Positions 1-33,843 of a stretch of 35,892 nt of DNA are shown here, one piece after another (within the stretch, counting starts at the first letter, position 1; every line of letters begins with the position of its first letter). The notes under the pieces are model-generated. The model saw only the letters and a list, made by a program, of their open reading frames with translations. It was not told the DNA's origin and did not search any database. Made by a program: the position numbers and the translations under genes. The stretch covers positions 1 through 35,892 of the forward strand of contig CALXXH010000002.1 of NCBI GenBank assembly GCA_944392635.1, read 5' to 3'. The stretch is from an uncultured Clostridia bacterium (GTDB lineage: Bacteria; Bacillota; Clostridia; TANB77; CAG-508).

Positions 1-1289
1 TCTAATTGTACATATATATTTCCTTTTGATTGTGGATCTATATTTAATATTGCTTCATTTCCTCCACCGATTATTATTTTTGTATAGTTATCTACATTTT
101 CATTTGTTGTTGTATAATTTACTTCTGTTCCTGAAACTATACTTCCATCTGCATTCATTTGTGTTCCTATTCCAACTATATTTGCATATTTTGTATCATA
201 ATAATCTTCTAATTCATATATTTGTGTTTTTAGAGTTGTTGCTTGGTTCTTGATTGATATTACATATGTCATTTTTACACTCAATTTATCATCTGCATTT
301 TCTCCATCTTTATACATTATATCTGATGCATATAAATATCTTGTATATGACATTGATCCATATAGTCCTTCTTCTTGAAATTTTACTTGTGGCTCTAATT
401 CATGGGCCTCTGTTACTCCTTCATCTGCAAATTCATTTGCAAATACACCGTTTTCTTCCCATAAATCTTCATTTAATCTATCTGCATATACATATATATG
501 TTCTGCTCCTGCTACAGTCACATTTGCTCTTTCTATATCTTTTACTACTGATAAATCTGGTTGCTCTCTTTGATATAGTCCCATATTTATGTTTTCTATT
601 TCAGTTGTTCCTTGTTTTCTAATATCTTCTGCACTCTTAATGTCTGATAAATATCCACTTCCTCCTACTGATGTATATCCATTATATGTTGTTGCTGTAA
701 TTAAATATTGTTCATCTGTTTCATTTATTGGGAATAATTGTCCATCATATCCATATTCAACATTCTCTCCATAGTTTACACTACTTTTTTGTGTATTTGT
801 ATTATAGTCATAATTTATACTATGTATTTGCTCTCCATTTGAATTATTTGACTTTCCTACATTTTCTTGGTTATTATCATCATCTGCTATTTGTGCATAT
901 TCTGCATTAAATATGTCTCTTTCTTCTCCTTCTAATGCTTTTGAACCATTCTCATTTAATATATCTAATATTGGTACTGGCGTATAACTCATTCCATTAT
1001 ATGTGAATTCTATATAGTAATTATCAAGTTCATCTATTAAAACGTCTACCATTCTATATGCTCCATTTGCATCTGTCTTTATTTCATTTACTTCTTCACC
1101 TGAATCTGTTTCAAAACTAATTGTATTTCCATTTCCATCTTTTAATCTTACTGTTACATTTGCAACTAGCTTATCCCCATTTCTTTCATCTGTATCTGGA
1201 GCTGTATATAGATAATCTCTTACTGATGTTTTGCTACTTATCATGTCTTCCCATACATATCCTGAAAGTTTGATATATTTTCTTCTGTT
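1..1289. repeat. Copy 1 of a near-identical ~1.29 kb tract shared by B3 and B2 (partner at 9690..10954); truncated by the window edge.
   Basis: Base 1 aligns to 9690 (offset 9689). After a 24-nt indel the offset becomes 9665. The shadow ORFs 728..910 and 10393..10575 give identical 60-aa translations, and 589..774 versus 10254..10439 differ at 2 residues. Similarity stops abruptly at 1289/10954. Confidence 0.9.
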
Positions 1290-3239
1290 ATTATATGTAA
1301 TTGTACTAAATCCTGAATCAGTAACCCCTGATGCATCTGTTAAATCATTTAGTCTGTATCTTTGAGCTGCTGAACCATTATTAGTATGTACTTGCACATT
1401 TGTCGTATTAGCTGATGAACCATTAGTAATATCCATATATAATCCATTACATTTTGAAACTAATGAATAATTTCCATTTCCTTCATCTTGTATCTTCCAT
1501 TTTTGCGCATCTGTATCATTTCCTTGATATATTTGCACATTTGCACCTGGTGAAGTACTTGCTCCTGCTACTTCTACATATTTATTAGCAGATAATGAAA
1601 TTATTGAATAATATCCTTCCCCTAAATATCTTATATAGAATTTTTGTGCAATTGATTTATTCATATCATATAATGCAACATTTGCACCATTATATGTATA
1701 TGCATTGGTTACTTCAATTACTTTATTAGCCCCTACATTTGATTGGATTTCATATGTTCCATCTTCTATAACTTTTTGATCATCATCTATAATATTTGAT
1801 TCAGGAACTGTTGTATATGATTTTTGTCTAGTTACCTCTATTGTAGAAATAGCACCTGTTCCAGTTTCACTTCCATTATCCCAAGATATATAATCATCAT
1901 CTAATTCATATCCGTAATAATCATCACCTACTGAAATCTCTTCTACAATATATGTACCCACTAAAATATTATGAATTTGTATTAATCCTTCACTGTCTGT
2001 TATGAATATTGTAGCTTCACTTTCATTAGTAGTTGTAGTCATATTACTAAAATAAACTTCACCTTTTGCTTCACTTATTGGCTCTCCATTTTCATCAATT
2101 CCTATTACATATTCACTATTTTCATTCATAACTCTATATCTTATATTTTCCATTGGCATTCCACTATCGCCATAATCTGGATCTTTTTTTACTATTTCAA
2201 GGTTTCCTGTTTGTTTTTCATTAGTCAAACTATATGTTCGAAGTATTCCTGAATATATATGTACTTCTTCACTTTCAAGTATTTCATATCCATAATGTCC
2301 ATTTGAAACTTCACTTATTTGATATACTCCTGGAGTTAAATTGTCAACATGAATTGATCCATTTTCATCTGTTGTAAATGTTTCGTCATATCCTAACTCA
2401 TCACTTTTTACATTTATTTCTACATTTGGAAGTTTAACATCACTATCATCTGCATCTTGTTTGATTATATCTAAACCTGCATTAAAGTTTACCCATTGAA
2501 CAGTAGCTGATGTATTTTCATCCCAATAATCATCACCTTCTTCATATACATAATCAGTAGTAACAACTCCTTGGTGATTTTTGTAATAATTAACTGCATC
2601 ACAAGTTCCTCCAATATATGTATAATGTCTTGATCCTGTTTTAGTCCAATGACGATGAAGGCTTCTTGACTTAGTTTGTGTAAGACTTACACTACTTATT
2701 CCTCTATCATATAAGGTAGATGATAAACTTATATAAAAATCTATATTTCCTGTACTTCCAAAAGGATTATTACCATTTCCATTTGCATCACATAACCCCC
2801 ATCCATCTATTCTATTACCAGATTTATCTAGTATAGTTATAGTTTGTCCTGTTGTATTAGTAGTTATTTGGAATGGTCCTAAAACATAGTTATTACCTAT
2901 TTTTCTTACACCTATTTGGTCGTTTCTCTTTGATAATTGTACTCCTTCTGATATAGCATTTGTAGCACCATAATTTATTGCCGTAGTATTATTATAATCA
3001 TTACTATATGAACTTTCACTATGATAGCAATATGCATTATCTCCTTCTATATCTGTATGCCAACCTGCTGCTACCCATTCATGATTTGAGCAATATCCTG
3101 TTCCTGTTGGTCCTCCTGAAAATCTATGTTGAGTACGACTTTCATAATGGAAGTTTACCGCAAAAGCATTTCCACAAGTAAACATTCCAACTAGGACAAA
3201 TAGCATTATAGAAACTCCAAGCTTTGATATTTTACCTAT
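1..3239 (-). CDS. B3: third B-type giant surface adhesin paralogue. Its 3' end lies beyond the window start, and no stop, SD or ATG separates it from A3 upstream.
   Basis: Hand translation of the minus frame is open from 7049 down to base 1. The ORF is missing from the track only because it has no stop in the window. From 3239 it reads IGKISKLGVSIMLFVLVGMFTCGNAFA/VNFHYES. This is a 27-residue signal-peptide-like segment in exact register with the B1 and B2 signal peptides, with ATA where they have ATG. It is followed by a Cys-containing head and SpaA/CnaB-like modules (GLDIIKQDADDSDVKLPNVEINVKSDELGYDETFTTDENGSIHVDNLTPGVYQISEV). Next come a ricin-B module and an RRKYIKLSGYVWEDMISSK... stalk almost identical to B2. 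Confidence 0.7.
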   Translation of the reverse strand, partial: MGKISKLGVSIMLFVLVGMFTCGNAFAVNFHYESRTQHRFSGGPTGTGYCSNHEWVAAGWHTDIEGDNAYCYHSESSYSNDYNNTTAINYGATNAISEGVQLSKRNDQIGVRKIGNNYVLGPFQITTNTTGQTITILDKSGNRIDGWGLCDANGNGNNPFGSTGNIDFYISLSSTLYDRGISSVSLTQTKSRSLHRHWTKTGSRHYTYIGGTCDAVNYYKNHQGVVTTDYVYEEGDDYWDENTSATVQWVNFNAGLDIIKQDADDSDVKLPNVEINVKSDELGYDETFTTDENGSIHVDNLTPGVYQISEVSNGHYGYEILESEEVHIYSGILRTYSLTNEKQTGNLEIVKKDPDYGDSGMPMENIRYRVMNENSEYVIGIDENGEPISEAKGEVYFSNMTTTTNESEATIFITDSEGLIQIHNILVGTYIVEEISVGDDYYGYELDDDYISWDNGSETGTGAISTIEVTRQKSYTTVPESNIIDDDQKVIEDGTYEIQSNVGANKVIEVTNAYTYNGANVALYDMNKSIAQKFYIRYLGEGYYSIISLSANKYVEVAGASTSPGANVQIYQGNDTDAQKWKIQDEGNGNYSLVSKCNGLYMDITNGSSANTTNVQVHTNNGSAAQRYRLNDLTDASGVTDSGFSTITYNNRRKYIKLSGYVWEDMISSKTSVRDYLYTAPDTDERNGDKLVANVTVRLKDGNGNTISFETDSGEEVNEIKTDANGAYRMVDVLIDELDNYYIEFTYNGMSYTPVPILDILNENGSKALEGEERDIFNAEYAQIADDDNNQENVGKSNNSNGEQIHSINYDYNTNTQKSSVNYGENVEYGYDGQLFPINETDEQYLITATTYNGYTSVGGSGYLSDIKSAEDIRKQGTTEIENINMGLYQREQPDLSVVKDIERANVTVAGAEHIYVYADRLNEDLWEENGVFANEFADEGVTEAHELEPQVKFQEEGLYGSMSYTRYLYASDIMYKDGENADDKLSVKMTYVISIKNQATTLKTQIYELEDYYDTKYANIVGIGTQMNADGSIVSGTEVNYTTTNENVDNYTKIIIGGGNEAILNIDPQSKGNIYVQL
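1341..1775 (-). other. Ricin-B-type (beta-trefoil, CBM13-like) lectin module inside B3.
   Basis: Codon-by-codon translation gives VIEDGTYEIQSNVGANKVIEVTNAYTYNGANVALYDMNKSIAQKFYIRYLGEGYYSIISLSANKYVEVAGASTSPGANVQIYQGNDTDAQKWKIQDEGNGNYSLVSKCNGLYMDITNGSSANTTNVQVHTNNGSAAQRYRLNDL. It contains three subrepeats of about 45 aa, each ending in a Q-x-[WFY] motif (QKF, QKW, QRY). Confidence 0.65.
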
Positions 3240-3335
3240 ATTAAATTTTAGCTTAATTGCCACAATAGTTAATATAGCTATAATTAATACTATTACTCCA
3301 ATAGATATATACATTCCTAAACCTGTACTTATAGA
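3240..3335 (-). other. A3 C-terminal sorting-signal-like segment (SISTG + TM + KLKFN) with no stop codon after it.
   Basis: Codons were read individually: SISTG is at 3335..3321, LGMYISIGVIVLIIAILTIVAI at 3320..3255, and KLKFN at 3254..3240. Next comes ATA GGT AAA at 3239..3231, which continues into the B3 signal peptide. Confidence 0.8.
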
Positions 3336-6300
3336 AATAATTAATTGTGCTTCTGAATAATCGTCTTCATTAGATTTTCTATTTCCTGGTGTTGAATCTG
3401 CATCATTTACTCCTTCTATAGTATCTACACTTCCTATTTCTGCTGCATTTGTAAATGTACCTGTATCTTCTCCATTCATTGTTTTTGTCAATGTCAAAAC
3501 TATTTCTTTACTTTCACCTGGATTTAAATCTTGATTCATTAAACTTCTATTAACTAATAATTTACCATCAGTTGTCCAGTTAGTATTACCTTTTGAAGAA
3601 AAAGTTAATCCATCAGGTATATAATCATATATTTCACTTACCTTTACTTTTGCTTCTCCTTCATTTGTAACTACAATTTTATATGTTACTGAAACTTCAG
3701 CACCATTAATTTCTTTAGCTCTTATTTCTACTCTACCTAATTTTGTATTATCATATGAATAATATTTTGTTCCTGAATTTGTTGTTACAGAAACATTTGT
3801 TAAATATTTGTCTAGTTTTAAGTCATATCCATTTTTATTTACTAAACCAATATCTATATTATTTGCATCTTGTGTTAAGCTTATAGTATCTGTAACTCCA
3901 ACATTTACTCTAACTCCATTTAAAGTTATTTCTTGCATCGTTACATCAGAGTTTGAACTTTCTGGTACTCCATTTGCATTATATTCTGTTAATAAATAAT
4001 TTTGTGTATTATATCTAAATATTACAATGTAATTTCCTTGCTTTAAATTTGAAAATGTATATCTACCATTATTAATTGTTGTAGTTGCTTTTACATTGTT
4101 TGAGTCTGCCATATCTACTAACATTACTTGTAATCCACTTATTAAAGGTTCATTGTCTTGTCTATTACCATCTCCATTTACATCATTCCAAGAAGTTCCT
4201 GAAATACTATATACTGTGTCATCTGGATTACTTGGTTCTTCTGGATTAGTTGGATTTTCTGGATCTTCTGGATCAGTTGGTTCACCAGGTACACTTGGTT
4301 CATAACCTTCATCAACATTATATGGTAATATGATATGCTTTATGACATTAGATATTTTTGTATCTATTTTATCTATTGTTTCACTTTCAGTTATGTGATC
4401 CATATTAGGAGCTTGAACTATTGCACTGTTTTCTATTTCTGTTCTTTCAAACACAAGTCCAGCTGTGGTTTTAACTGTTATATTTACAGTTTCTCCTTTT
4501 GGTATATTTATATAAATATCAACATTTGGTAATTTATTTCCATCTGTGTCTGTTACTGAAGAATATAGCTCCTCTGTTGCTACTTTTTTTTCACTATATC
4601 CTATTGGTACTTGTACTTCTCCTTCATCACCAGTTACTGTTTGAAATTCTTTATCAAAATATTCATAAGTCACACTTACAGGATTTACATTTTCAGGTAA
4701 ATAATCTAAGACATTTACATATATACCTTCAAGATTACTATTTTCCTGATTCTTTGGTGCACTTATACATTTAATAGAAATATTATAATTTATTTTTTCT
4801 CCATATCTAACTTCTTCACCTTCATTGTCAGAAGACATTGTTACTGACAATTCTGAAACATTATAAGGTATAATATTTTCATTTGTTTTATATTCTTTGT
4901 CATCTACTATAACTACAGCATTTGCTTTTAATTTTACTTCTCCATTTTTTGCTTCTAGCTCTCCACTCTTTATTTGTTCTTTTACAATTGATTCATCACC
5001 TATTATTAGCCCTAGTTTATAGGTTCCACTTTCACTTGCAGTTATTGTAACTTCAGTTCCATTATAACTTATTGAAGCTCCTGTTATTGGTTCTTCATCT
5101 TCTTTAAGGTCTATATTTGTACTATATTGCGTTTTATATGCCTCAAGATATACTCTACCATTTGAAACATTTTGTTCTGTTATAGAAAATATCTTTGGTA
5201 AAGTTAATTTTATTGTTGCTTGTTTCCCTTCTGGAATATCTAAATTAACCCCATAAAGCCATTCATCGTCTGGTCCATCCATTTTTGACCAAAGAAAAGC
5301 TTTTACTTCTGCTTGTTCAACAACATTATTCAAAGTATAATTATAACTTTCAGTATTAGCAATATATACTTTTATATTAGTTATTATCTCTTTTTGTGCC
5401 TCTTCATCTAACAAATCTTTTACTTGCACTTCATATGACTGCTCTATAGTTTGACCAGCTTTTAAAGTACCTATATTTATCTCTTTTTCTTTTAAATCTT
5501 CATCAAAATTATATTGATAGCTATAATCATCTGGAAAACTAAAGTTTGAATCCAATTCTCCATATTTTGTTCCATCTGGTATAGTTCCTACTACTCTTAT
5601 GTCTTCAATATCTTTATCTAATGTATTTGTAATTTTTACATTATATTTTATGAATTCACCTTCATAAATAGTATCACCATCTTTTAGATTTGTATTTCCT
5701 CTTACTGGGTCAATTTCAACTTTTAGTCCTTCAATTTCTTCTACTGTTGCTGTTCTAACACTTTCTTCTACATTTTTTTCTGCTGCCTCAGTAATTGTTG
5801 ATATTAAATCATTTCCTTCATCTAAGATATTTGAATCGTTTTTAGTAAGATTTTGTTCATTTTGTACTTCTTCATAGTTTTCTATCGATACTTCCTTTTC
5901 TATATTTCCTTGTTCAGAAGTAGCATTTGTAGTAAATTCATTAGTATAAAGTAGATTTATTTTACTTTGAGCACTTTCAATATCTTTTTTCAAAATTACA
6001 ACTGCAGATATTTTCAAATCAGTCATTAAACCTAAATCATTTTCACTATATCCTGTTTGTATTCCATTTAGATTTGCAACTATACTTAAATTTCCATTTC
6101 CATCATTCTCAATATATGCATTTTCTAATGTTAAACCATTTGAATAAACAACAGATGTATTATTTATTATAACTTTTTCAACTTGATTTGGTAATTGTAT
6201 TCTTACAGTTGGATTCTTAAAAAGATTATTTCTTATAGATGTTGAGTCTAAAGTAATATCAAATGTAACTTCATTTTGCTTTCTATTAGTCCATTCTGCA

Positions 6301-7521
6301 TTATCTAAATTTAAATTTACACTTGTTTGAGAATCTTTTATTTCTATAATATTTTCATTTTCTACATGATATACTTGTTCTTCTACTATTTCTCCTTCTT
6401 CATTCTCTTTTTCATTTATCCCTACTAAATTAAAGCTTGTAGTAATTTGTGTAATATCTAAATTTAAATTATCACTTTTTATTGCTTTTAAATTTTCGAT
6501 ATATAATGTTCCTACATTTTCAATATTACTTGTTCTAATTATTATTTTATTAACATCTTCATTATATGTAAGTACTATTTCTCCATTTTCGTTATACTCT
6601 GTAGTATTGTCTATTGTAAATAAGACATTTTCATCTACATCCAATATTTCAATTTTTCCATTTTCACCTAAAAGATTTTTTACATCCTCTTGTCTAATTT
6701 TTGTACTTTTATATACTATATCATTATTTCCAGAAAAATAATTATCTTCCGTAAAAGCTATTTTTTGTTGTATATCTTTTTTACTAATCATAATTTCTTG
6801 AGTTTCTTTATATTGAGTATCATAAGTAGTTCCGTTTATTATATTAGATTTAATATATCCATTATATACTTCATCTGTACTATATGTGACAGATGTTAAA
6901 TTTCCTATATTTTCTGTTACGTTTTCTTTGAAAGTCCCTTGACTTTCTATTTCTTTATTATCATCTGTAAATAATGCTGTTTTTAGTTTTACATCATAAG
7001 ATACTTCTCTTTCTGGTTGTTCTCCGTGTATATGTGTCATAATAACAAATTAATATATATTCATCTCTATCTTCTGGACTTATTTGTGTAGTATTTATTG
7101 CTTCTCCATTCTCATTTTCATTACTAACATTTATTGTTAAAGTTCCATTATTTGAATCATAACTATAATCCTCTTCTATGTTAGTTGTTTGTCCATTTGT
7201 TACTTTTGTACTTTTTTCAATTACTTTTACATCATATGGAAATTTACCATCAATTTGATTTAAATTAATGGCTATTTGTGTATTTTTTACTGGATAATAA
7301 ATTTCTCCATATTCAATTCCTGTTTTAAGGCTATATTGTACTAAAGTACCATTCTCCCCACTAGATAAATCATAGTTTACGTACTTATCTAGTCCTCCTT
7401 CAAGAATAATTTTCTCTTCGTCTGCCCCAAAACTTTCTTTAGTCACTATTTGATTCATAATTAGCACTAAAATCGCCAAAAAGATTAATGTAAATATTTT
7501 TCCAAAAGTCCCCTTCTTCAT
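3240..7521 (-). pseudogene. A3: third A-type giant wall-anchored repeat protein. It is interrupted by a +1 frameshift near 7026-7040 and has lost its stop codon, so it reads into B3.
   Basis: GGAGG lies 6 nt before the ATG at 7521. Track ORF 6994..7521 encodes the signal peptide MKKGTFGKIFTLIFLAILVLIMNQIVTKESFGA and the first domain, then degenerates to TRRTTRKRSIL-stop. The +1 frame, open from 7049 with an ATG at 7040, continues protein-like: HGEQPEREVSYDVKLKTALFTDDNKEIESQGTFKEN... It runs on to an SdrD-B-like module (ISGTSWNDVNGDGNRQDNEPLISGLQVMLVD...GRYTFSNLKQGNYIVIFRY), a DUF11-like terminal domain and SISTG. Confidence 0.65.
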
Positions 7522-7555
7522 ACTACGCCTCCAAATCTTAATATCCTATATAACA

Positions 7556-7584
7556 ATTATGTAATCATTTTCAACTTTTTTCAA
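7556..7584 (-). promoter_or_regulatory. Candidate sigmaA promoter of cassette 3.
   Basis: On the minus strand: TTGAAA (7584..7579), a 17-nt spacer, then CATAAT (7561..7556), about 35 nt upstream of the A3 ATG. A second TTGAAA lies 5 nt downstream of the first. Confidence 0.4.
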
Positions 7585-7624
7585 GATAGTTTTTTTGACA
7601 TTATTTAACATAGTATTATTAACG

Positions 7625-7645
7625 TTTAGGGATACTCATTAAGCT
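7625..7645 (-). promoter_or_regulatory. Conserved ~21-nt element upstream of the cassette 3 promoter (partner at 16702..16723).
   Basis: The minus strand reads AGCTTAATGAGTATCCCTAAA here and AGCTCAAACGACTATCCCTAAA upstream of A2. In both cases it sits about 105 nt before the ATG. Confidence 0.3.
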
Positions 7646-7713
7646 AATTACAACAATTAATTATTAAGATTCTTTTACATTTTTGTAACATAATTGTATC
7701 TTTAATTACAGGC

Positions 7714-7745
7714 AAAATAAAAACGGGCATAAACCTTACGCCCGT
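7714..7745 (-). terminator. Rho-independent terminator after B2.
   Basis: On the minus strand: ACGGGC, an 11-nt loop, GCCCGT, then TTTTATTTT. It begins 9 nt after the B2 stop. Confidence 0.7.
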
Positions 7746-7753
7746 AATATTTT

Positions 7754-16864: not shown

Positions 16865-19800
16865 TTAGGAATTTTTAGCTCCGTTTCCTAATCCCTTTTT
16901 CTTAATTACAACTATTCCTACTGCTAATGCTATTAATGCTATAACTCCTACCGTAATTCCTACTATCACTGCTGTATTTGTTCCTGTAGGTGGTGTAATT
17001 ATTACTGTTTCTGCCATATCTTCATCTGTCTCTTTATCTCCTGTTCCAGGTATATAGTTACCTGGTGTTGATACTAAGTCTGCTCCTCCTGTTTTATCTA
17101 CTTCTACCATTTCTGTTTCATTATCATAAGAAATATCCTCTTCACTTGATGATAAAATTCTTGAAACATTTAACATCACATTTGCTGAAGCTGTTGGCTC
17201 TATTTGTGTATCTTTTAGCGCATCTGTATATAATATTGTTTTGTCATTTATTGTAGAAGTTTCATTTTGATATACATCTTCTGCTAATAAGTCTTTTACA
17301 TCATCTAGTTTTTTTACTTGCCACTCTGGATTTGCTTCATTATTAAATGCCCAATCTTTGTCTAGATAATCTATAATTCCAGTTGCACTAATTTTTACTA
17401 CATCTCCTTCTACAATTCCATATTTATAGAAGTTTTCTGATAAGTAATCTAACTCACTATTATTTGTTGCTATAAATTCATAACCTACTTCTAATGTCGC
17501 ACCTTGCATCATTTCATTATCTAATTCAACTCTTACAAGTCCATTATTTGGTTCTGTACTATCAGATGGTTTAATATATGTCACTCCTTGTTTTTCTCCA
17601 GTAATTGTTCCATCATCTTCAATAGTAACATTTGTTATAACTTGACCATTTGCAAGTGTAATTTTTAAGTTTCTAACTTTTTTAGCTAATCCTAAATCTT
17701 GTCTTGCTCTTTCTACAATTCCAAAGTCAACATTATCAATTCTATATGTATATCTATCTCCTGCTGATGCTGTTGTAGTTGTGTCATATTCTACACCTAT
17801 TCCCATTGTTGGTGTTGTAGAATCCATTTTATCTATAGTTGTAGTTGTTCCATTTTCTATATGCTTAATTTCATCATCTATTGCTAATCTTTGTTCATAA
17901 TCATCTAAAGCATCTGTATAACGAATATCTACATCTTTTTTATACCATTCTTTATCACTTTGGTCTCTATCTTTGTTATATACTGTACCTTTATAGTTTT
18001 GTACTGTATATGTTTCATTTCCCCAAGTGTATGTTAATGTATAGTCTCCTGGAATATATCCACTGATATAGAAATCTCCGTTACTATCAGTTGTAGCTGT
18101 ATATACTTTTCCACTTCCTGTATTTTCTGTTAATGTGATTTCTACTCCTTCTATTCCTAATTCTCCATCTTCATATTGTCCACTACCTTGACGTACCTCA
18201 CCTGTCATTAATTCTCCTGTTGTAGAATCTAAGAATACTTTACCTGCAATTTCTCTTGCGTCTGCAACTTCTAATTGTAATGATAAGCTTGCATCTGTGT
18301 CATCTTCATATGTTGATTTATCTTCTGGGTTACAAACTCCTGGGTTTGAGTCTTTATCTATACCAGCATATACATTACCATTTTCATCAAATACTGAATA
18401 TGAATTGATTTCTACAACATTATCAAGATTTTCTTGTCCATTTAATATATTAATTACTGCTTCTCTATTTAATTCAAATTGTACATATATAACTCCATCA
18501 TTTTGTGCCGTTGTTTGTGGATCTAATCTTGTATTGTTATAAATTATAACTTTGTTGTAATTTTCATTATATGTTCCATCTTCATATTCCATATTTCCAG
18601 TTACATTACCTTTTTCATCTACGCCTGTACCTATTCCAACTATACTATATCTACTATCATAATAATCAACTACACTATTTGCTTGAGTAATTAAATTTGT
18701 TGATTGATTTCTTATTGCAATTTTATATGTAATATATACTTTTAGTTCTTTGCTCTTATCTTGTTCATTTACATATTCATAATCTGCTTCATAAATTGCT
18801 CTTGTATATGGCTCTTGTGCATATTTTTCTCCAAATTTAACACCTACATTAAATCCTTCTCCACCATAGTTTTCTGGATGACTAAATCTTTGTGCATATT
18901 CATATGTATGTTCATATCCATTAACTGCAACTCTTACATTTTCAATATCTTTTGCAATTGCCATATCTGGTTGTTCTCTTTCATATAATCCTAAATTAAT
19001 ATATTTAATTTCCTCTTGTCCTTTCTCATAATTATTAATTAGGATAAAGTTTGCAACATCTGTATCTGCTATTATTGTATATTGTCCATTATTAATTAAT
19101 GTTGATTGATGTTGTACTGGATCATAGTTATATGACAATTGATGTTTTTCATTTCCTTCAGCATCTCTAGTATATCCCGTATTTTGTGTTCTTCCTTCTA
19201 CTACACTAAAGTTTTTATTAAATGCATCTCTATTTTCTGGATCTTCTGCTGATTTTGAGCCATTATCTTTATCTAAATGTGGTGTTACATTTGTATATGT
19301 TAATCCATCATATTCAAATTCAATATAGTAATCACCTAATTTTTCTAATAGAACATTTTCAAATAGGTATGAACCTCCATTTGAAGTTGTTGTTTCCATT
19401 ACAGTTGCACCTGTTGTTCTATCTTTTAGTCTTACTGGTACACCATCTAATAATATGTCATTAGTATCAAAATCATCATCATGATATAAGTCATTTCTTA
19501 TCCATTGTTTTTGGTCTTGTTTATCTACCCATACATAACCAGATAATTTAATACGTAATACAATGTTATAGTCAAAAGGTGTAGTAATTTCTTCTGTTGC
19601 TGTATATGGCTCTCTAATAATTAAGTTTTGTAAATATCCATTTGTAGCCTCTAAGAACCAAATTTTAACACCTTTAACATCTAATTTTGCACTTGCTGTA
19701 ACTTTTGTTATTCTAGTTACTCCTGTATCTGCTGGAACTGATATATAGAAATCTCTACCTGATGTAATTCCATCTACTCCATACCAGTATTCACTATTTC

Positions 19801-20455
19801 CATTAAAACTACTATATAATAATCCATTTATACTATTTCCATTTTGGTCAGCAACTGTTACACCTGTAATACTTCCTCCAAATGACCAGTTAAATGGTCC
19901 TATTCTCATATAATCTCTTCCGTCTTTATTATAAGTATGTACACTGATATTATCTTTATTAGTATTATCTGTTATACTTAAATTTCCTACTGTTCCTATA
20001 TAGTTACTAGATTCTGTATCTAACCAGTTTGAACTACCATTTTGGTTACTTGCAAATCCACTATATAATCCTGCATGATATTGTCCAACTGCTTGCATCC
20101 ATGTATACATGAAATTCCAAACAGCATTTGCAACTGGTCCACTTCCTTTTGATCCTCCATTGTCTTGTGATAGTATATATGCAAGTTTAGCATTATAATC
20201 ATGTGTAATTTGTTTTCCTGTATAGTCTGTTGAAGTTTTTCCTTTTATATCTACTTGTGAAATAACTCTATAATAGTTTATACTTCTTAATGCTTGATGA
20301 TGTTCCACACAATAGATATTAGGATCACTTAGATATTGATTATATGTTACTGCTAAATTTTGACCTACATAATATGCAGAACTTACAGTAGATAATCCAA
20401 ATAGTCCAACTATTGCAAATACTATACTAAGAACAATTTTCTTTATTTTACTCAT
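16865..20455 (-). CDS. B1: 1196-aa wall-anchored adhesin, homologous to B2, with a TPPTG sorting signal. Its head has the thioester-type Cys motif but no Gln at the aligned TQXA position.
   Basis: Track ORF, with AAGGAGG 9 nt before the ATG. The signal peptide is MSKIKKIVLSIVFAIVGLFGLSTVSSA. It contains NIYCVEHH, PVANAVW, YMRIGPFNWSFGG (compare B2 YVRVGPFNFSFAG) and IKLSGYVWVDKQ. It also contains GLYEREQPDMAIAKDI, DFGIVERARQDLGLAK and GKVFLDSTTGELMTGE...NGDFYISGYIPGDYTLTYTWG. Confidence 0.85.
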   Translation of the reverse strand: MSKIKKIVLSIVFAIVGLFGLSTVSSAYYVGQNLAVTYNQYLSDPNIYCVEHHQALRSINYYRVISQVDIKGKTSTDYTGKQITHDYNAKLAYILSQDNGGSKGSGPVANAVWNFMYTWMQAVGQYHAGLYSGFASNQNGSSNWLDTESSNYIGTVGNLSITDNTNKDNISVHTYNKDGRDYMRIGPFNWSFGGSITGVTVADQNGNSINGLLYSSFNGNSEYWYGVDGITSGRDFYISVPADTGVTRITKVTASAKLDVKGVKIWFLEATNGYLQNLIIREPYTATEEITTPFDYNIVLRIKLSGYVWVDKQDQKQWIRNDLYHDDDFDTNDILLDGVPVRLKDRTTGATVMETTTSNGGSYLFENVLLEKLGDYYIEFEYDGLTYTNVTPHLDKDNGSKSAEDPENRDAFNKNFSVVEGRTQNTGYTRDAEGNEKHQLSYNYDPVQHQSTLINNGQYTIIADTDVANFILINNYEKGQEEIKYINLGLYEREQPDMAIAKDIENVRVAVNGYEHTYEYAQRFSHPENYGGEGFNVGVKFGEKYAQEPYTRAIYEADYEYVNEQDKSKELKVYITYKIAIRNQSTNLITQANSVVDYYDSRYSIVGIGTGVDEKGNVTGNMEYEDGTYNENYNKVIIYNNTRLDPQTTAQNDGVIYVQFELNREAVINILNGQENLDNVVEINSYSVFDENGNVYAGIDKDSNPGVCNPEDKSTYEDDTDASLSLQLEVADAREIAGKVFLDSTTGELMTGEVRQGSGQYEDGELGIEGVEITLTENTGSGKVYTATTDSNGDFYISGYIPGDYTLTYTWGNETYTVQNYKGTVYNKDRDQSDKEWYKKDVDIRYTDALDDYEQRLAIDDEIKHIENGTTTTIDKMDSTTPTMGIGVEYDTTTTASAGDRYTYRIDNVDFGIVERARQDLGLAKKVRNLKITLANGQVITNVTIEDDGTITGEKQGVTYIKPSDSTEPNNGLVRVELDNEMMQGATLEVGYEFIATNNSELDYLSENFYKYGIVEGDVVKISATGIIDYLDKDWAFNNEANPEWQVKKLDDVKDLLAEDVYQNETSTINDKTILYTDALKDTQIEPTASANVMLNVSRILSSSEEDISYDNETEMVEVDKTGGADLVSTPGNYIPGTGDKETDEDMAETVIITPPTGTNTAVIVGITVGVIALIALAVGIVVIKKKGLGNGAKNS
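16868..16996 (-). other. B1 sorting signal: TPPTG + TM + KKKGLGNGAKNS.
   Basis: The TPPTG codons were verified at 16996..16982. They are followed by TNTAVIVGITVGVIALIALAVGIVVI and KKKGLGNGAKNS. Confidence 0.8.
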
Positions 20456-20475: not shown

Positions 20476-23400
20476 TTATATATCACCTTTTTTAGCTTTT
20501 TTTCTGTATATTACAATACCAATTCCTATTAATGCTAGTATTATAACAACTATTGCACTTATCATTATAGCTCCACCTGTTCTAATACTTAAGATAACAT
20601 CTGCACTACCTAAATCATTTTCTCCTGCTTCTTGATTTCCTGGTGTTGAGTTTACATCTTTAAGTCCTAGGTCATTATAATCCTCAGCAATTTCTGCTCT
20701 ATTGTTTATACGTCCTGTATTATCTTCTGTCATTGATTTTACTAATGTTAAAGTTACTGTTTTTGTTTCACCTGGTGCAATTGGTTCATTTGATAATACT
20801 GATGTATATATTCCATTTTCTGCTTGATACCAATCTTTGTTCATTTCTGAGTTAAATGTTAAATCACTTGGTATATAATCAACAATTTTTCTTGCATATC
20901 CTGTAACATCACCTACGTTTGTAACTTTTATTTGGAATTCAATAATTGCTGTTGTTCCATTTACTCTCTTTGCATCTATCTCAGCTTTTGCCATTGTTTC
21001 ATCTTGATATTCTTTTACTGTTGTTCCACTTGAATTTTGTAAAATTATTTTACTTACATATTTATCTAATTTCAAATCATAATTTTGTAATAAAGCAAGT
21101 CCAATATTTATATTTGAAATATTACCATTATTTACTTCTAATATATCTGTTGAAGCAACTTCTTGGTCAGTGTTTTCTATATTTAAAGTATTCATTAGTA
21201 CAGATGAATTATTATTATCTGCAATTCCTGCTGCTTTATATTTAGTTAATGTATATTTTGTATTATCATAATCAAATACTGCAATATATCTACCATTTGC
21301 TATTTTATCTAATACATATACACCATTTTCATTTGTTGTTGCTTCTAAAACATTTCCATCAGTTGTTTTTACAAAATTATTAGTTTCTGCATTTAATAGT
21401 CTAACCTTTATACCACTTAAAAGTTGTTCTCCTTCATCTTTGCTACCATTTGCATCTTCATCAAACCATGCAAGTCCTGTTATTGTCATATTACCTTTAG
21501 CAATATCATTATCATCTACATCATTATTTCCATTAAAGCTTCCATCATTTGCTTGAATAATATGATTAATCTCAGCCGTTGTTGCTACTCTTTCACCATA
21601 CACTTCTGCATACGCAACATTTGTAATTGCTTCTGCAGTTGTTCTTCCTGCTGAATAGTTAACTACTGTATTTATTACAATTGTTGCATCTTGATTTGCT
21701 TCAATTTGTACTGGTATTTCTAAGTTATTTGTTGTAATTCCTTCAACAGGTGCTCCATTTAGTGTTACACTTTCAATATTTAATTGTGAAGGTATATTAT
21801 CTTTTACTACTAATCCTGATGTTCTTGAAGTACTTGAGTTTTTAATATTAATTGTGTATTGTATTGTATCTCCTGCTTTTACATATTGACTTTCTGTTTG
21901 TGTTTCCATACTTAAATTAATATCAAAACTTTCAACTCTATCTTGCCATTCATTTGAGTTATATTCTTTTTGTCCATCATTTGCAATTACTGAGAATTGA
22001 ATATTATCTGCATTTGAATCTTTAATTGTCATATCATAACTTAAGACCTTTGATTGTCCTGCATCTAAACTACCTATACTAATTTCATCTTGATATTCAA
22101 TTTCTTCTGTTTGTATATTATTTGATGCTTCAGTTATTCCAGATTCTTCAGTTTCTGTAGCAACTACATCACTATCTGTATTATATATATCTCCATCTTC
22201 TTTTCCCATTCCTGTAATTAAGTTTAATCTGCTAACATCTAAGTTATTAGAAATGTTTGTATTTATTTTTACATCTTCAATATTACTATTAGAGATATTT
22301 TCAATAATTGCAAAATATTGTACTGCTCCTGATTCATATAAATCTACTTTTCTATCTGTTACACGTTTTACTGTAACTCTTAAATTTCCAGTTTCAGTTG
22401 TAAGTGTATTTGTATCAGTTTCTATTGTTGCTTCTCCATATTTAATTTGTGCTTTATTCTCAAGTCTTGTTCCTTCTTTAGTATCACTATCTACTCTTAC
22501 CTCATATGAAACTGTTTTTACTTCTCCTACTTCTAAACTATCAATTGTTGTCTTAAATTCTCTATCTTCTAATTCTTCATAATATGAAGCTCCTGTGTAC
22601 TCATAATTTTCTTCTGGTACAACCATTGTTGTTCCTTCTGGTACTTGTGCTGTAACTTCGATTCCAGTCATATTTTGTGAACCTGTATTTGAAACTTCTA
22701 TATTATATCGAATTACTTCTCCATTTTTTACATTTTGAGTAATTTCATTTCCTACACTTGTTGCAGATAATTTTGCATCCACCTTAGGTCCTACACCTGT
22801 TTCTAATGTAATCTCTGTTGAATCTATATTTCCTTCTACTGCAGTTTGTTCATTAGTATAACTTACATTATATGATTCTTTTGCTTGTTTGTTGTATTCT
22901 AAGTTTTCTGGATTTTCTATTGGGTATGAAAACTCAATACTTTCTCCTGTTGCTAAGCTATCTGCTACAACTAAATATTTTTTAGCATCTTGTGTAAATT
23001 CTGTACTCCATCCATTTGCATTATCATTTACATCATTTGTTGCATCTTCATTTTCTGTATAATATGTCTTAACATCTTCTTTACTTACTTGCATACCATT
23101 TAAAATCTTTGTTCCTAAATTGTTTGTTTTACTATCAGTTGGAAATGTACCAAGAATTTTTACATCTTTCATATTATTTTCATTTGTATTAATTACTTCT
23201 GCATTTACATTTAACTGATTTGGAACTTGCGCGCTAAGTAAGTTTACACTTGTATTTTCTTCTTGACCTGTAGTTTCTAATGAAATCTCAGGTATACTAT
23301 TAATTACAGCCATATCTTGTGGTGCAATTATTTTTATTCCTTGTTCTTGTCTTCCTTCATCTTGATATGAATGTGCAATTTCATTTTGATAATACATTGT

Positions 23401-25263
23401 AATTTTAGAATCTAGTGTTGCAGAATTTCTATTTAATTTTAAATTAGCATTAACTACTAATTCTGCTCCTTCAACTGCCATATCTTTATAGTTTGTTTGT
23501 TTTCCTTCTAATGTAACTACAATATTTCTTCCTTGAACATTATAACTTTTAAGCTTTAATTCTCCTTCATATAGAAGTTCTACACTTGTAATTTCAGCAC
23601 TTTGAACTTGTTCTGGTAATTCAAATGTAATTACTGGATTTTGATACAAGTCGTATTTTTCATTATTTGATAATAATGTGGCTCTCATTTCCACAGAATT
23701 ATCTACTACTGTTGATAAAGTGTTTTTATTTATCTCAAATTTACTTTGTGTTGTTGTTTCTTCTAATGTTATATTATTTTCTACTTGTCCTAAATCTTGT
23801 TTGTTATATCCTACTTTACTTATATATCCAACTTGTGAGATTTCAGCTATATTTGATGTTTCTGGAACAAGTTTTTTATAGTTTTTAATATTAAGAGTTC
23901 CTTCTGTTACTGGCTTTGATGTTTCAAATCTTATACTTGCTGGATCCCCACTATATGTAATAACTATATTTTTATCATCATCAATTTGACTTGATGCTGT
24001 AATTCTCCCTATTTCTTCATTATTTTGATTATATACAATTATTTCTCCAGTTTCTCCAAACAATTTATCAAAATTTTCTTTTGAGATAACTGATTTTGTA
24101 TATACTTCTTTTAATAAATTTTGATTAGCATTTTCAGTAATTTCTACACTATTTATTGCTTTTGCCAAATTTATATCTACACTAGTATTTGTAACATATT
24201 CTTTTTCTAATCCAGCATATAATCTTCCTTTATATATACTTGCTTCTTCTGGATATGATGAAATAGTTACAATACTATCTTTTTCTTCACCAGTCAAAGT
24301 AAGCTCTTTAGAAGCTGTTATTTCTTTATTGTCATATAATCTTACTTTTTGTTCTGTAGTAAATCTTTGACCATCCACGTTTGCATCATTATCATATATA
24401 AATGTTAATATAACTTTTTCATTTCCATCTGTTTTCCATTTAATTTCATTATTATTTGCTTCATTTGTAAATTTCATATTAACATTTGATCCATCTAAAG
24501 AATAATCATAATTTGTCATCGTATTAAGAGTTACAACTCTTGATATTTCTGGCATTTCTCCATTAATAGATGGAACTGCAAGTTTTGTTTCAATTTCTTT
24601 TATTGGATAATTATTATCTTTTAATCCTAATTTCCAAGATAATTGAACAACTCTTTTTTCTTGTCCATCTACTGACATTACTTTATTTGTAATTACTTCA
24701 ATATCATTTGATATATTCTCAGCTGTATAGTTTTCTGTAAGAGATAATTTTACTTCTCTTGTTGCCTCAATTGTTTTATCTCTCTCACTACTATCATAAT
24801 ATGTACCATCTAATTTAATTACATTTGTTTTATTCAAATTATCTAAATTAAATATTTCATCTTTATTTAATTCGATCTTTACTTTTGCATCTACTAATGT
24901 ATTTGCATTAATTTGATTAAATGTAATTGTATTTCCTTCTATTTTGTTTACATAGCTACTATCTGTATCTTTTAATGAAAAATTACTATCTTCTATTGTA
25001 ACCTTTCCATTGAAATATCCTTCTTGTTTTACTTGAATTTGCATATATAGATAGATATCTTCTTGATTAGCCATATCTACTGAAGATATTGCTTGATTAT
25101 CTCCATTTACAAAATATGCATCAAATTCAATATTTCTATTATTAGTTTCTACTGTACTTGCTGCATAACTAATAAGACTTGAACCAACAAATAAAAAGTT
25201 TGTTAATGTCAAAGTCATTATTAACAAAATAATCATACTTATTTTAAAAATTTTGTTTTTCAT
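20476..25263 (-). CDS. A1: ~1595-aa wall-anchored multi-repeat surface protein with an SIRTG sorting signal.
   Basis: Track ORF 20476..25281; AAGGAGG lies 8 nt before the ATG at 25263 (MKNKIFKISMIILLIMTLTLTNFLFVGSSLISYA). DUF11-like repeats are present (VKNGEVIRYNIEVSNTGSQNMTGIEVTAQVPEGT). An SdrD-B-like module is present (ITGLAWFDEDANGSKDEGEQ...NGVYVLDKIANGRYIAVFDYD). The terminal domain reads DLKLDKYV...VTNVGDVTG...DVNSTPGNQEAGENDLGSADVILSIRTG. Confidence 0.85.
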   Translation of the reverse strand: MKNKIFKISMIILLIMTLTLTNFLFVGSSLISYAASTVETNNRNIEFDAYFVNGDNQAISSVDMANQEDIYLYMQIQVKQEGYFNGKVTIEDSNFSLKDTDSSYVNKIEGNTITFNQINANTLVDAKVKIELNKDEIFNLDNLNKTNVIKLDGTYYDSSERDKTIEATREVKLSLTENYTAENISNDIEVITNKVMSVDGQEKRVVQLSWKLGLKDNNYPIKEIETKLAVPSINGEMPEISRVVTLNTMTNYDYSLDGSNVNMKFTNEANNNEIKWKTDGNEKVILTFIYDNDANVDGQRFTTEQKVRLYDNKEITASKELTLTGEEKDSIVTISSYPEEASIYKGRLYAGLEKEYVTNTSVDINLAKAINSVEITENANQNLLKEVYTKSVISKENFDKLFGETGEIIVYNQNNEEIGRITASSQIDDDKNIVITYSGDPASIRFETSKPVTEGTLNIKNYKKLVPETSNIAEISQVGYISKVGYNKQDLGQVENNITLEETTTQSKFEINKNTLSTVVDNSVEMRATLLSNNEKYDLYQNPVITFELPEQVQSAEITSVELLYEGELKLKSYNVQGRNIVVTLEGKQTNYKDMAVEGAELVVNANLKLNRNSATLDSKITMYYQNEIAHSYQDEGRQEQGIKIIAPQDMAVINSIPEISLETTGQEENTSVNLLSAQVPNQLNVNAEVINTNENNMKDVKILGTFPTDSKTNNLGTKILNGMQVSKEDVKTYYTENEDATNDVNDNANGWSTEFTQDAKKYLVVADSLATGESIEFSYPIENPENLEYNKQAKESYNVSYTNEQTAVEGNIDSTEITLETGVGPKVDAKLSATSVGNEITQNVKNGEVIRYNIEVSNTGSQNMTGIEVTAQVPEGTTMVVPEENYEYTGASYYEELEDREFKTTIDSLEVGEVKTVSYEVRVDSDTKEGTRLENKAQIKYGEATIETDTNTLTTETGNLRVTVKRVTDRKVDLYESGAVQYFAIIENISNSNIEDVKINTNISNNLDVSRLNLITGMGKEDGDIYNTDSDVVATETEESGITEASNNIQTEEIEYQDEISIGSLDAGQSKVLSYDMTIKDSNADNIQFSVIANDGQKEYNSNEWQDRVESFDINLSMETQTESQYVKAGDTIQYTINIKNSSTSRTSGLVVKDNIPSQLNIESVTLNGAPVEGITTNNLEIPVQIEANQDATIVINTVVNYSAGRTTAEAITNVAYAEVYGERVATTAEINHIIQANDGSFNGNNDVDDNDIAKGNMTITGLAWFDEDANGSKDEGEQLLSGIKVRLLNAETNNFVKTTDGNVLEATTNENGVYVLDKIANGRYIAVFDYDNTKYTLTKYKAAGIADNNNSSVLMNTLNIENTDQEVASTDILEVNNGNISNINIGLALLQNYDLKLDKYVSKIILQNSSGTTVKEYQDETMAKAEIDAKRVNGTTAIIEFQIKVTNVGDVTGYARKIVDYIPSDLTFNSEMNKDWYQAENGIYTSVLSNEPIAPGETKTVTLTLVKSMTEDNTGRINNRAEIAEDYNDLGLKDVNSTPGNQEAGENDLGSADVILSIRTGGAIMISAIVVIILALIGIGIVIYRKKAKKGDI
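20479..20589 (-). other. A1 sorting signal: SIRTG + TM + RKKAKKGDI.
   Basis: The SIRTG codons were verified at 20589..20575. They are followed by GAIMISAIVVIILALIGIGIVIY and RKKAKKGDI. Confidence 0.8.
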
Positions 25264-25307
25264 AATGATGGCCTCCTTCATTTTTCACATTTTTCCATCT
25301 ATTACAT

Positions 25308-32946: not shown

Positions 32947-33843
32947 TTATCTTTTGTCTGAATTTTTAATTTTTTCTAATTTTTCTTTTTCAATTCCTGT
33001 TATCTTCACTATTTCATCTAAATCCATATTATAATTTAGCATTTTCTTTGCAATTTCTAAAACTTTTTCATTTTTTCCTTCTTTTATCCCTTCTTCTTTT
33101 GCTTCACCTATATCACTATTATAGTCCATTTCCCATCTTTCTCTTAACTCTTGCATTCTTCTTTCAGCAGCTTCTCCTGTTAAATAGTTCATTTCTTTTT
33201 TGGCTTTTCTTATTATTGCATTTTTCTTTTCTGCCATTTTCGATTTTTCCCCCTTAAAATCATCTATAAATGCTAACCATTGATTTACTCTGTCTTCCAT
33301 ATTTACATTTGCTTTTCTAAATTTAGGTAATTCTATAAAATACCATTTCATATTTTTTATTATTTCAAAATCTTTATGTTCTTTTAATACTATTTTTGAC
33401 TCTGATATATACTCATCAAATCCTAGTAATTCATAATCTAATATATTTATTAATATTAGCTGTTTTACATTTTTATACTCTATTCCTCTTTTTGTTTCTT
33501 GTGATAATAGTTTTGCTCCATAATGTAATGTCCTATTTTCAAAATATGCTCTTTGTCTTACTTGCATTTCTATATCTACTATTATTCCATCATTTAACTC
33601 TGCTTGTAAGTCTATACTTCCTCCTTTTTCATCTTTTGCTAGTCTTTCTAAATCAACTTCACTTCTAATTTCTATTTCCTTTATTTCTATTTTTAATAAA
33701 GCTTCTAAAAAATCTTTTAAAAATTCTTCATTTCCCTTTCTTGCAAAAAATGCTTTAAACACAATATCATCTTTTAGAGTTAGTTCTTTCTTTTTATTTT
33801 CTCTTTTTTCTTTTGTTTCATTATTATTTTTTTCATTTTTCAT
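32947..33843 (-). CDS. Rpn-family recombination-promoting nuclease / PD-(D/E)XK putative transposase.
   Basis: Matching stretches are LKDDIVFKAFFARKGNEEFLKDFLEALL, GGSIDLQAELNDGIIVDIEMQVRQRAYFENRTLHYGAKLLSQ and LILINILDYEL. AGGAAGGAG lies upstream of the ATG. Confidence 0.8.
   Translation of the reverse strand: MKNEKNNNETKEKRENKKKELTLKDDIVFKAFFARKGNEEFLKDFLEALLKIEIKEIEIRSEVDLERLAKDEKGGSIDLQAELNDGIIVDIEMQVRQRAYFENRTLHYGAKLLSQETKRGIEYKNVKQLILINILDYELLGFDEYISESKIVLKEHKDFEIIKNMKWYFIELPKFRKANVNMEDRVNQWLAFIDDFKGEKSKMAEKKNAIIRKAKKEMNYLTGEAAERRMQELRERWEMDYNSDIGEAKEEGIKEGKNEKVLEIAKKMLNYNMDLDEIVKITGIEKEKLEKIKNSDKR

Follow-up and report, generated by a model that had tools for sequence, protein, structure and literature searches.

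Near-identical stalk tract with divergent heads in tandem adhesin-like genes of an uncultured chicken-gut Clostridia bacterium: probable gene conversion and head-module replacement

The adhesin array and its genes

Large surface proteins that look like wall-anchored adhesins are encoded in tandem on a stretch of 35,892 nucleotides (nt) from an uncultured Clostridia bacterium (contig CALXXH010000002.1 of NCBI GenBank assembly GCA_944392635.1, positions 1 to 35,892; hereafter the window, meaning the whole stretch at its full length). The host is a sporulating member of the chicken gut microbiota; run metadata and related metagenome-assembled genomes (MAGs) place these uncultured Clostridia in chicken-gut metagenomes. 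All of the large genes lie on the minus strand of the window, where they form three cassettes, A1-B1, A2-B2 and A3-B3. A1 (20476-25281) is paired with B1 (16865-20455), the third paralogue, which provides the background comparison throughout, and A2 (12263-16609) is the partner of the intact gene B2 (7754-12244). The body of A3 (3222-7049) is in frame with B3, with no stop codon between them, and B3 forms the 3' part of a stop-free frame that extends from 7049 to 1 and runs off the left edge of the window. In each B protein a signal peptide precedes an N-terminal head that varies from gene to gene; next comes a stalk of about 1070 amino acids (aa) made of immunoglobulin-like modules, and the C-terminus carries an [L/T]PPTG motif. 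A stalk tract of about 2.3 kb is nearly identical between B2 and B3 and adjoins heads that share no nucleotide match; it is probably kept so by gene conversion between the paralogues, combined with the replacement of head modules between strains by exchanges that end inside the stalk.

Extent and boundaries of the shared stalk tract

The B2 copy of the full tract occupies 8634..10954 on the minus strand, about 2321 nt or stalk codons 1-774, while the B3 copy, at 1..1289 on the same strand, is cut by the window edge; the two are direct repeats with a spacing of about 9.67 kb. Window positions 1-1289 match 9690-10954 at 95.5% identity (1223 of 1281 aligned nt) with a single 24-nt indel. Local alignment spans 1-1305 against 9690-10970, and a repeat finder pairs 1-300 with 9690-9989 (97%) and 448-747 with 10113-10412 (96%). 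The onset of similarity is sharp and falls on the Asn codon of NRRKYIKLSGYVWED, with identity setting in at AAC AGA AGA AAA TAT (N-R-R-K-Y), window positions 1289 and 10954, and just upstream of this boundary the similarity of B2 and B3 is at random level. The DNA there is unrelated, being the end of a SpaA-like module in B2 and the end of a ricin module in B3.

Two ENA metagenome contigs of 21.7 kb, obtained from different samples and pipelines (L001 and L002), carry the complete B3 gene of sister strains and supply about 1030 nt of tract beyond the window edge. Their B3 aligns to the B2 of the window from 10954 down to the stop codon. According to the codon alignment, identity remains at 94-100% per 50-codon block (87% in the block holding the indel) as far as stalk nt 2321, which is window position 8634. 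Past this point it drops to 65-88% per 50 codons, and to 80% overall, across the final 296 codons (B2 of the window against B3 of L001). The tract therefore measures about 2.3 kb and is sharply bounded at both ends, its 3' boundary lying at 8633/8634, directly after ERARQILELDK and at the start of a C-terminal DUF11-like domain. The segment of B2 outside the tract (7754..8633, minus strand) comprises this DUF11-like end domain, the TPPTG sorting signal, a membrane helix and a basic tail.

Within the tract, B2 of the window and B3 of L001 differ at 64 of 2321 nt and share an exact block of 725 nt at 8634-9358. The two copies of the window itself share an exact block of 289 nt (B3 615..903, equal to B2 10280-10568, minus strand), in which the sister-strain B3 differs at 14 sites. 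A 24-nt (8-codon) insertion at about 410..447 on the minus strand is common to the B3 of the window and those of L001 and L002 and is absent from B2, which sets B3 apart as a copy in its own right; it is no collapsed duplicate of B2.

Such similarity is far above the family background. The homologous stalks of B1 and B2 are 59.5% identical in nucleotides, and the B1 stalk is about 34% identical in amino acids to those of B2 and B3. A2 and A3 share 37% amino acid identity over their C-terminal 443 aa only, which shows that each cassette, taken as a unit, is old. Recent duplication of an entire cassette was rejected on this part-length similarity of A2 and A3 and on heads that are unalignable at the DNA level. 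An initial annotation of the window, made from the sequence alone, had matched 1..1289 to 9690..10954 at roughly 95-97%, placed the onset at a domain boundary, and proposed that identity exceeds that of the rest of the B genes and continues past the window edge. The computed alignment agrees with it in coordinates and identity, the head-stalk boundary is exact to the N-R-R-K-Y codons, and L001 and L002 extend the match before it drops; the proposed tract length of 1.29 kb is superseded by about 2.3 kb and a second sharp boundary.

Heads, stalk modules and sorting signals

The B2 head (10955..12244, minus strand) comprises 430 aa: a signal peptide, a thioester-domain-like module at about aa 28-335, and a SpaA-like module at aa 338-432, the last matched by Pfam. 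The B3 head (1290..3221, minus strand) comprises about 643 aa, with a signal peptide, a Cys-containing N-terminal domain, two SpaA-like modules and a ricin-B lectin module. Pfam returns RicinB_lectin_2 (E 1e-40) and two SpaA stretches here, in agreement with the composition first read from the sequence. The two heads had also been called unrelated, a description that proved too strong. Remote homology (25-28% identity, E about 1e-8) links the N-terminal domain of B3 to the head domain of the B1 type, and SpaA-like modules occur in both heads, which are thus strongly diverged and different in composition, not unrelated. Both appear to begin with divergent thioester-like domains.

Thioester domains (TEDs) are characterised by the motifs [YFL]C-phi-zeta, (T)QxxphiW and phi-Q-zeta-phi-phi (PMC6194298). 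The heads of B2 and B1 align with three database relatives and display the three motifs in Class II order, as FCTQ, PAQVALW and an invariant Gln (alignment column Q265) in B2, and as YCVE, PVANAVW and LQNLI in B1 (window 20160-20330). In B1 the thioester-type Cys (YCVE) and the Gln that may form the bond (LQNLI) are conserved; its QxxphiW motif, a non-essential one, has Ala in place of the Gln (PVANAVW), unlike in B2 and the three relatives. No Pfam match to the TED family was obtained in the B2 head, even at E up to 1. An AF2 model of this head, with a mean predicted local distance difference test (pLDDT) score of 85.8, combines beta strands and a helical bundle with a beta-sandwich and a terminal hairpin, a layout like that of Class II TEDs. 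Foldseek, searched with the model, gave no match at E of 1e-3 or better; the only meaningful match, to BaTIE (6fwv), is weak (E 2.4e-3, probability 0.82, template-modelling (TM) score 0.24). Of the thioester-type motifs first noted in the B2 head, the motifs themselves stand, and a thioester-like head is plausible; with no Pfam TED match and a weak fold match, membership of the family is not proven.

The first stalk module of the tract, initially described as SdrD-B-like, scores only 16.7 bits for SdrD_B (PF17210) against a gathering cut-off of 29.7 bits, a sub-threshold hit that makes this assignment tentative. Matches above the cut-off occur at residues 959-1068 of B2 (32.6 bits) and in B1 (44.6 bits). 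An AF2 model of the junction (B2 aa 330-760, built on a 6-sequence alignment) is poor, with a pLDDT of 41; in this low-confidence model the first stalk module scores 57-83 and a strand begins at the breakpoint. No Ser-Asp repeat was found in the B translations. At the C-terminus, the motif is TPPTG in B1 and B2, LPPTG in the B3 of L001, and TPATG, IPPTG or VPPTG in relatives, followed in each B protein by a membrane helix and Lys/Arg residues, the arrangement expected of a predicted LPXTG-type sortase signal. A search of PDB sequences with B2 and B1 returned no relative, only a chance-level match to NOMO2, and a word-indexed protein search returned only three weak matches for the tract and two matches for the B2 head.

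Synonymous divergence and mosaic pattern

Synonymous divergence (dS) was estimated by the Nei-Gojobori method. Between B2 and B3, dS is 0.142 over stalk codons 0-429 (both copies from the window) and 0.025 over codons 429-770 (B2 of the window against B3 of L001), and it rises to 0.568 in the last 296 codons of the latter pair. The tract thus lies 4-20 times below the adjacent C-terminal 296 codons, a contrast in line with the recombination proposed in the initial annotation. Further, the C-terminal value of 0.568 is near the between-species values of 0.68-0.72 obtained when the last 296 codons of B2 or B3 are compared with L009, a related MAG of another species that serves as the outgroup. 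Since dS is 0.025-0.142 inside the tract and 0.568 after it, selection at the protein level cannot explain the tract.

Divergence within the tract is uneven, with no difference in 289 nt and in 725 nt and 18 per 100 nt elsewhere. Under an even spread of the 59 differences between the two window copies, the 289-nt exact block has P=5e-6; the corresponding value for the 725-nt block is P<5e-6. The variable sites among B2 of the window, B3 of the window and B3 of L001 fall into perfect blocks of 19, 14 and 38 sites: B3 of L001 equals B2 in the first, B3 of the window equals B2 in the second, and the two B3 copies agree against B2 in the third. The site patterns form 6 runs where 48 are expected, and none of 200,000 shuffles was as extreme. 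In patches, the paralogues therefore appear more alike than the alleles, as far as short-read phasing can be relied on.

A contig from another sample (L010) carries B1, A2 and B2 as far as codon 763. Outside the tract it matches the window without a difference for about 8.6 kb; its 12 mismatches are all confined to the tract, and at eight of them it has the B3 allele.

Exchange between strains

Comparison of L001 with the window revealed 0-1 mismatch over window positions 2500-8710 and about 10% divergence over approximately 750-2490, including a dockerin insertion in the L001 head. The replaced block extends from the first SpaA-like module of the B3 head to the inside of the stalk and reads as a direct example of head-module exchange, with one crossover in the conserved stalk. 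Additionally, several samples have a third allele in circulation at stalk nt 553-586.

The inserted module of the L001 B3 is type-I dockerin-like (GDINANGYIDENDL...DVNADGEVDILD). It lies at about 6539-6874 of L001, corresponding to window positions of about 2054-2172, among the SpaA-like head modules, and is absent from the B3 of the window. The presence of a dockerin on a wall-anchored adhesin suggests cohesin-mediated assembly.

Assembly and read-level support

The reality of both copies was examined in independent ENA assemblies and in Logan k=31 contigs of four to seven runs. Both head-stalk junctions are present in runs X1, X2, X3 and X8 and in the ENA assemblies L001, L002 and L010, and the Logan junction contigs start some 30 nt into the tract, as contigs at the edge of a repeat should. 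In X1 the tract appears as a chain in which shared segments, at about twofold depth (18.6-19), alternate with two-allele bubbles; the B3-type allele has a depth of 8.1 and the B2-type allele 14.9, and each is an exact match to B2 or B3. The head contigs of X1 have depths of 8.5-13.6, and its head-junction contigs are at single-copy depth (8.5 and 9.3). The starts of L001, L002 and a further contig, L003, lie 77, 55 and 30 nt within the end of the exact repeat, the pattern that de Bruijn graph branching leaves where a repeat is real. On the junction contigs, the X1 depths and the identical B3-specific variants in the window and L001/L002, both copies and their junctions are taken to be real. 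A patch at stalk nt 648-753 or so, with 74-89 identical nt on its flanks, has the B3 allele in the B2 of L010 and the B2 allele in the B3 of L002.

Contig 'joints' such as 6636 to 9777 were considered as deletion products and not used, their anchors being only about 20 nt. A low-coverage contig of 3.3 kb (L005, noted for its positions 1592-3263) tracks window positions 8065-6475 exactly and then enters an unrelated AraC-type helix-turn-helix gene; either the contig is chimeric or it represents a structural variant without most of A3-B3.

The stalk family

A HMMER search of 1.84 billion representative sequences identified 1605 homologues of the stalk. In the best 150 of the 1605, the stalk matches the C-terminal part of the protein, with 28-2053 aa upstream of the match. 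Among pairs with stalks at least 50% identical, about half have head-proximal regions of 250 aa that are unalignable, which makes the decoupling of head and stalk a family-wide property. The junction itself is recognisable as N(R/K)xxY(I/V)KLSGYVW in 10 of the 10 B proteins examined, drawn from the window, its sister strains and three related MAGs (L007, L008 and L009), with heads of about 250-930 aa. The positional orthologue in L009 has the same ricin-plus-stalk arrangement.

Module combinations differ between species. In the stretches examined, a single A-B cassette is seen in each of these three MAGs; in L007 and L009 it lies, with only a B1-like gene besides, ahead of spoIIE. The single B of the L009 cassette joins a B2-like thioester-type head to a B3-like ricin module, and the cassette of L007 is A3-like and apparently fused.

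The A genes and the A3-B3 fusion

The A proteins contain DUF11/CLIPPER and SdrD_B domains and have, at the C-terminus, S(I)RTG or SISTG ahead of a membrane helix and a tail rich in Lys, which looks like a sorting signal without the Pro of LPXTG. The fusion of A3 and B3 without a stop codon (window 3140-3300, minus strand; stop-free frame from 7049 to 1) recurs as a 3061-aa gene in L001 and L002. At the junction, the C-terminal 'SISTG + membrane helix + KLK' of A3 passes directly into the signal peptide of B3 (KISKLGVSIMLFVLVGMFTCGNAFA, then V), and the start codon of B3 is apparently ATA, not ATG. L007 has a stop-free frame of 2938 aa with A3-like and B parts, apparently the same fusion. In the HMMER list clustered at 50% identity, the fusion is also found in 13 proteins of about 2.4-3.1 thousand aa, and the fused proteins all keep a mid-protein 'S[IV]xTG + transmembrane segment + basic loop + second signal-like segment'. 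A3-B3 looks like a conserved two-in-one polyprotein, which sortase and signal peptidase could split.

A3 is itself broken by a +1 frameshift near 7026 (6994-7521, with 7049 downstream; minus strand), which does not lie in a homopolymer. It leaves an N-terminal open reading frame (ORF) of 175 aa and a remainder of A3 that lacks a signal peptide. L001-L006 and run X1 have the extra base and the contigs of X2, X3 and X8 do not, which makes the disruption a polymorphism among strains. An exact-protein look-up with the small N-terminal ORF of A3 matched six contigs; look-ups for B2, B1, MinC and the TTG-start form of A2 gave no match.

Gene order around the array

Upstream of the adhesin array lie minC, a gene for a class B penicillin-binding protein, mreDCB and radC, and in the sister-strain contigs spoIIE comes after B3. 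The gaps within A-B pairs are about 20 nt, and those between cassettes about 230-255 nt. An intrinsic-terminator-like hairpin follows B2 (7723-7745, minus strand), and a similar one follows B1 (16791-16813). With these hairpins, the short A-B gaps and the long gaps between cassettes, each A-B pair looks like its own operon and transcription unit. No sortase gene was found within the window. A PD-(D/E)XK-family transposase-like gene (32947-33843, minus strand) is located between radC and mecA, about 8 kb upstream of the array.

Proposed explanation and its rivals

Our favoured explanation, which we hold to be likely, is that gene conversion between B2 and B3 maintains the near-identity of their stalk tract, and that head modules are replaced between strains by recombination ending inside the stalk. 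Repeated non-reciprocal homologous recombination would keep the first 774 or so stalk codons of the two genes near-identical. Copying would end where homology ends, at the head-stalk junction on the 5' side and at the start of the 80%-identical C-terminal domain on the 3' side, with the effect that the heads stay distinct and the stalk evolves in concert. The conserved stalk would also offer homologous DNA in which recombination between strains can end, allowing head modules to be replaced as blocks. The identity profile, the lowered dS, the sharp boundaries, the strain-specific mosaic and the reproducible junctions are direct observations; from them we infer a RecA-type conversion mechanism, a direction of conversion and an adhesin function of the proteins. 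A conserved stalk with differing heads, shaped by recombination or gene conversion with a breakpoint at the head-stalk junction, had been proposed in the initial annotation, and the dS contrast, the mosaic, the reproducible junctions and the family pattern support this core reading.

A more far-reaching version, in which the stalk is a maintained recombination module and A-B units and head modules are shuffled, deleted or duplicated between cassettes and strains at appreciable frequency, giving a gut commensal adhesin switching at the population level, is speculative and decidedly unlikely; such a module may act together with the A-B polyprotein architecture of an internal sorting signal followed by a second signal peptide.

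The rival that retains most plausibility, although still unlikely, is a one-off duplication or replacement of the 2.3-kb stalk followed by ordinary mutation, with no ongoing conversion. Two sharp boundaries and a low dS are equally expected from it; what speaks against it is the very uneven divergence of the tract, with its exact blocks of 289 and 725 nt, and the different placement of identical blocks in strains that are otherwise identical for kilobases. Allelic recombination between strains alone, with B2 and B3 alike through a shared recent origin, would account for the contiguous block of about 10% divergence at roughly 750-2490 in an otherwise identical L001/window background, as well as for the third allele at stalk nt 553-586. 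It leaves unexplained that a different block of B3 is exactly equal to B2 in each strain, that the variants gained by the B2 of L010 are precisely B3 alleles, and that shared segments reach about twofold depth within one sample, and we regard it as quite improbable.

That the B3 tract is an assembly artefact, a collapsed or chimeric copy of B2 in place of a diverged real B3 stalk, might be suspected from a window that ends in a repeat, from the breaks of L001, L002, L003 and L010 in the same repeat, and from the small patch that flips between copies across assemblies. Such an artefact is hard to reconcile with ricin-to-NRRKY (B3) and SpaA-to-NRRKY (B2) junctions recovered in independent assemblies and in the k=31 contigs of four runs, with B3-specific variants, including the 24-nt insertion, that are identical in the window and L001/L002 and absent from B2, with shared segments at about twice the depth of the flanking single-copy contigs, and with the ricin-plus-stalk orthologue in L009; its probability is very low. 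Strong purifying selection on the stalk protein without recombination can draw on the conservation of the stalk across the family. It was rejected on the dS contrast and is practically negligible: synonymous sites are homogenised too (0.025-0.14 against 0.57 in the adjoining segment), and the B1 stalk, under similar constraint, is only 59% identical in nucleotides.

Several points weigh against inter-paralogue conversion as the account of the whole pattern. All sequences compared here are short-read metagenome assemblies or k=31 contigs, in which fine-scale phasing is unproven; a search for PacBio or Nanopore runs returned none, and the case against an assembly artefact is accordingly indirect. 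The patch near stalk nt 648-753 could reflect assembler mis-phasing instead of genuine short conversion tracts, and bubble-popping by the assembler may yield some falsely exact blocks of identity. The B2 tract of L001 was not assembled, so the equality of B3 of L001 with B2 refers to the B2 of the window only. Polarisation of the changes with L009 as outgroup gave no clear direction of conversion. Finally, the first two mosaic blocks adjoin the strain-diverged head block, and, being contiguous with it, part of the mosaic may be allelic import and not copying between paralogues.

Relation to known adhesin systems

The sdrC-sdrD-sdrE genes of Staphylococcus aureus encode tandem cell-wall adhesins with divergent ligand-binding N-terminal regions and conserved stalk repeats of the SdrD-B type. 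The B genes resemble them as tandem paralogues with divergent heads and Pfam SdrD_B matches in the stalk. Unlike the Sdr proteins, those of the B genes have no Ser-Asp region, their heads are thioester-like or lectin-bearing and not MSCRAMM A domains, and their conserved part is one unique tract of 2.3 kb, not a set of short repeats. In Neisseria pilE/pilS and Borrelia vlsE, silent, promoterless donor cassettes vary the exposed part of a surface protein. Non-reciprocal copying between related sequences that alters a surface protein would be the shared element; however, B2 and B3 are both complete genes with a signal peptide and a sorting signal, B2 has its own terminator-like hairpin, B3 is an in-frame fusion with A3, and the exchanged part is the conserved stalk.

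TIE proteins are sortase-anchored Gram-positive adhesins with thioester, isopeptide and ester domains, such as BaTIE of Bacillus anthracis, which has a Class II TED (PMC6194298; PMC4450167). The B proteins share with them the signal peptide, the head with TED motifs, the Ig-like stalk and the LPXTG-type signal, and the B2 head model places a beta-sandwich between the helices and the Gln strand, in Class II order. They differ in the lack of a Pfam TED match and the weak fold match (E 2.4e-3, TM 0.24), in a much longer stalk of about 1070 aa that forms a distinct conserved unit, and in the pairing, and sometimes fusion, of the B genes with large DUF11/SdrD_B 'A' genes.

In Helicobacter pylori, non-reciprocal recombination between the paralogous adhesin genes babA and babB generates chimeric or variant adhesins (reviewed in PMC5483490). 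There, as is proposed here, paralogous adhesin genes with near-identical segments exchange sequence. The bab genes encode outer-membrane proteins at dispersed loci of a Gram-negative bacterium, whereas the B genes are tandem, wall-anchored and from a Firmicute, and in B2 and B3 the stalk is homogenised, not the binding region. Yeast FLO paralogues likewise acquire chimeric adhesin alleles by ectopic inter-genic recombination (PMC3512402), so that duplicates of a surface adhesin recombine between genes; unlike the B genes, they are eukaryotic and subtelomeric, and their recombination is driven by internal tandem repeats.

Significance

Gene conversion among adhesin paralogues is a well-known mechanism, as the bab, FLO and Sdr-type loci illustrate, and the family described here is new and uncharacterised. 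The locus would offer a clean natural example of the way in which large wall-anchored adhesins diversify, with heads that diverge or are swapped and a long stalk kept alike across tandem copies. Short-read assemblies break exactly at this locus on account of the 2.3-kb repeat, and the adhesin repertoires recorded in such MAGs will consequently be truncated or mis-phased. The unnamed family of 1605 stalk homologues may, in turn, yield new adhesion modules, both covalent (thioester-type) and lectin.

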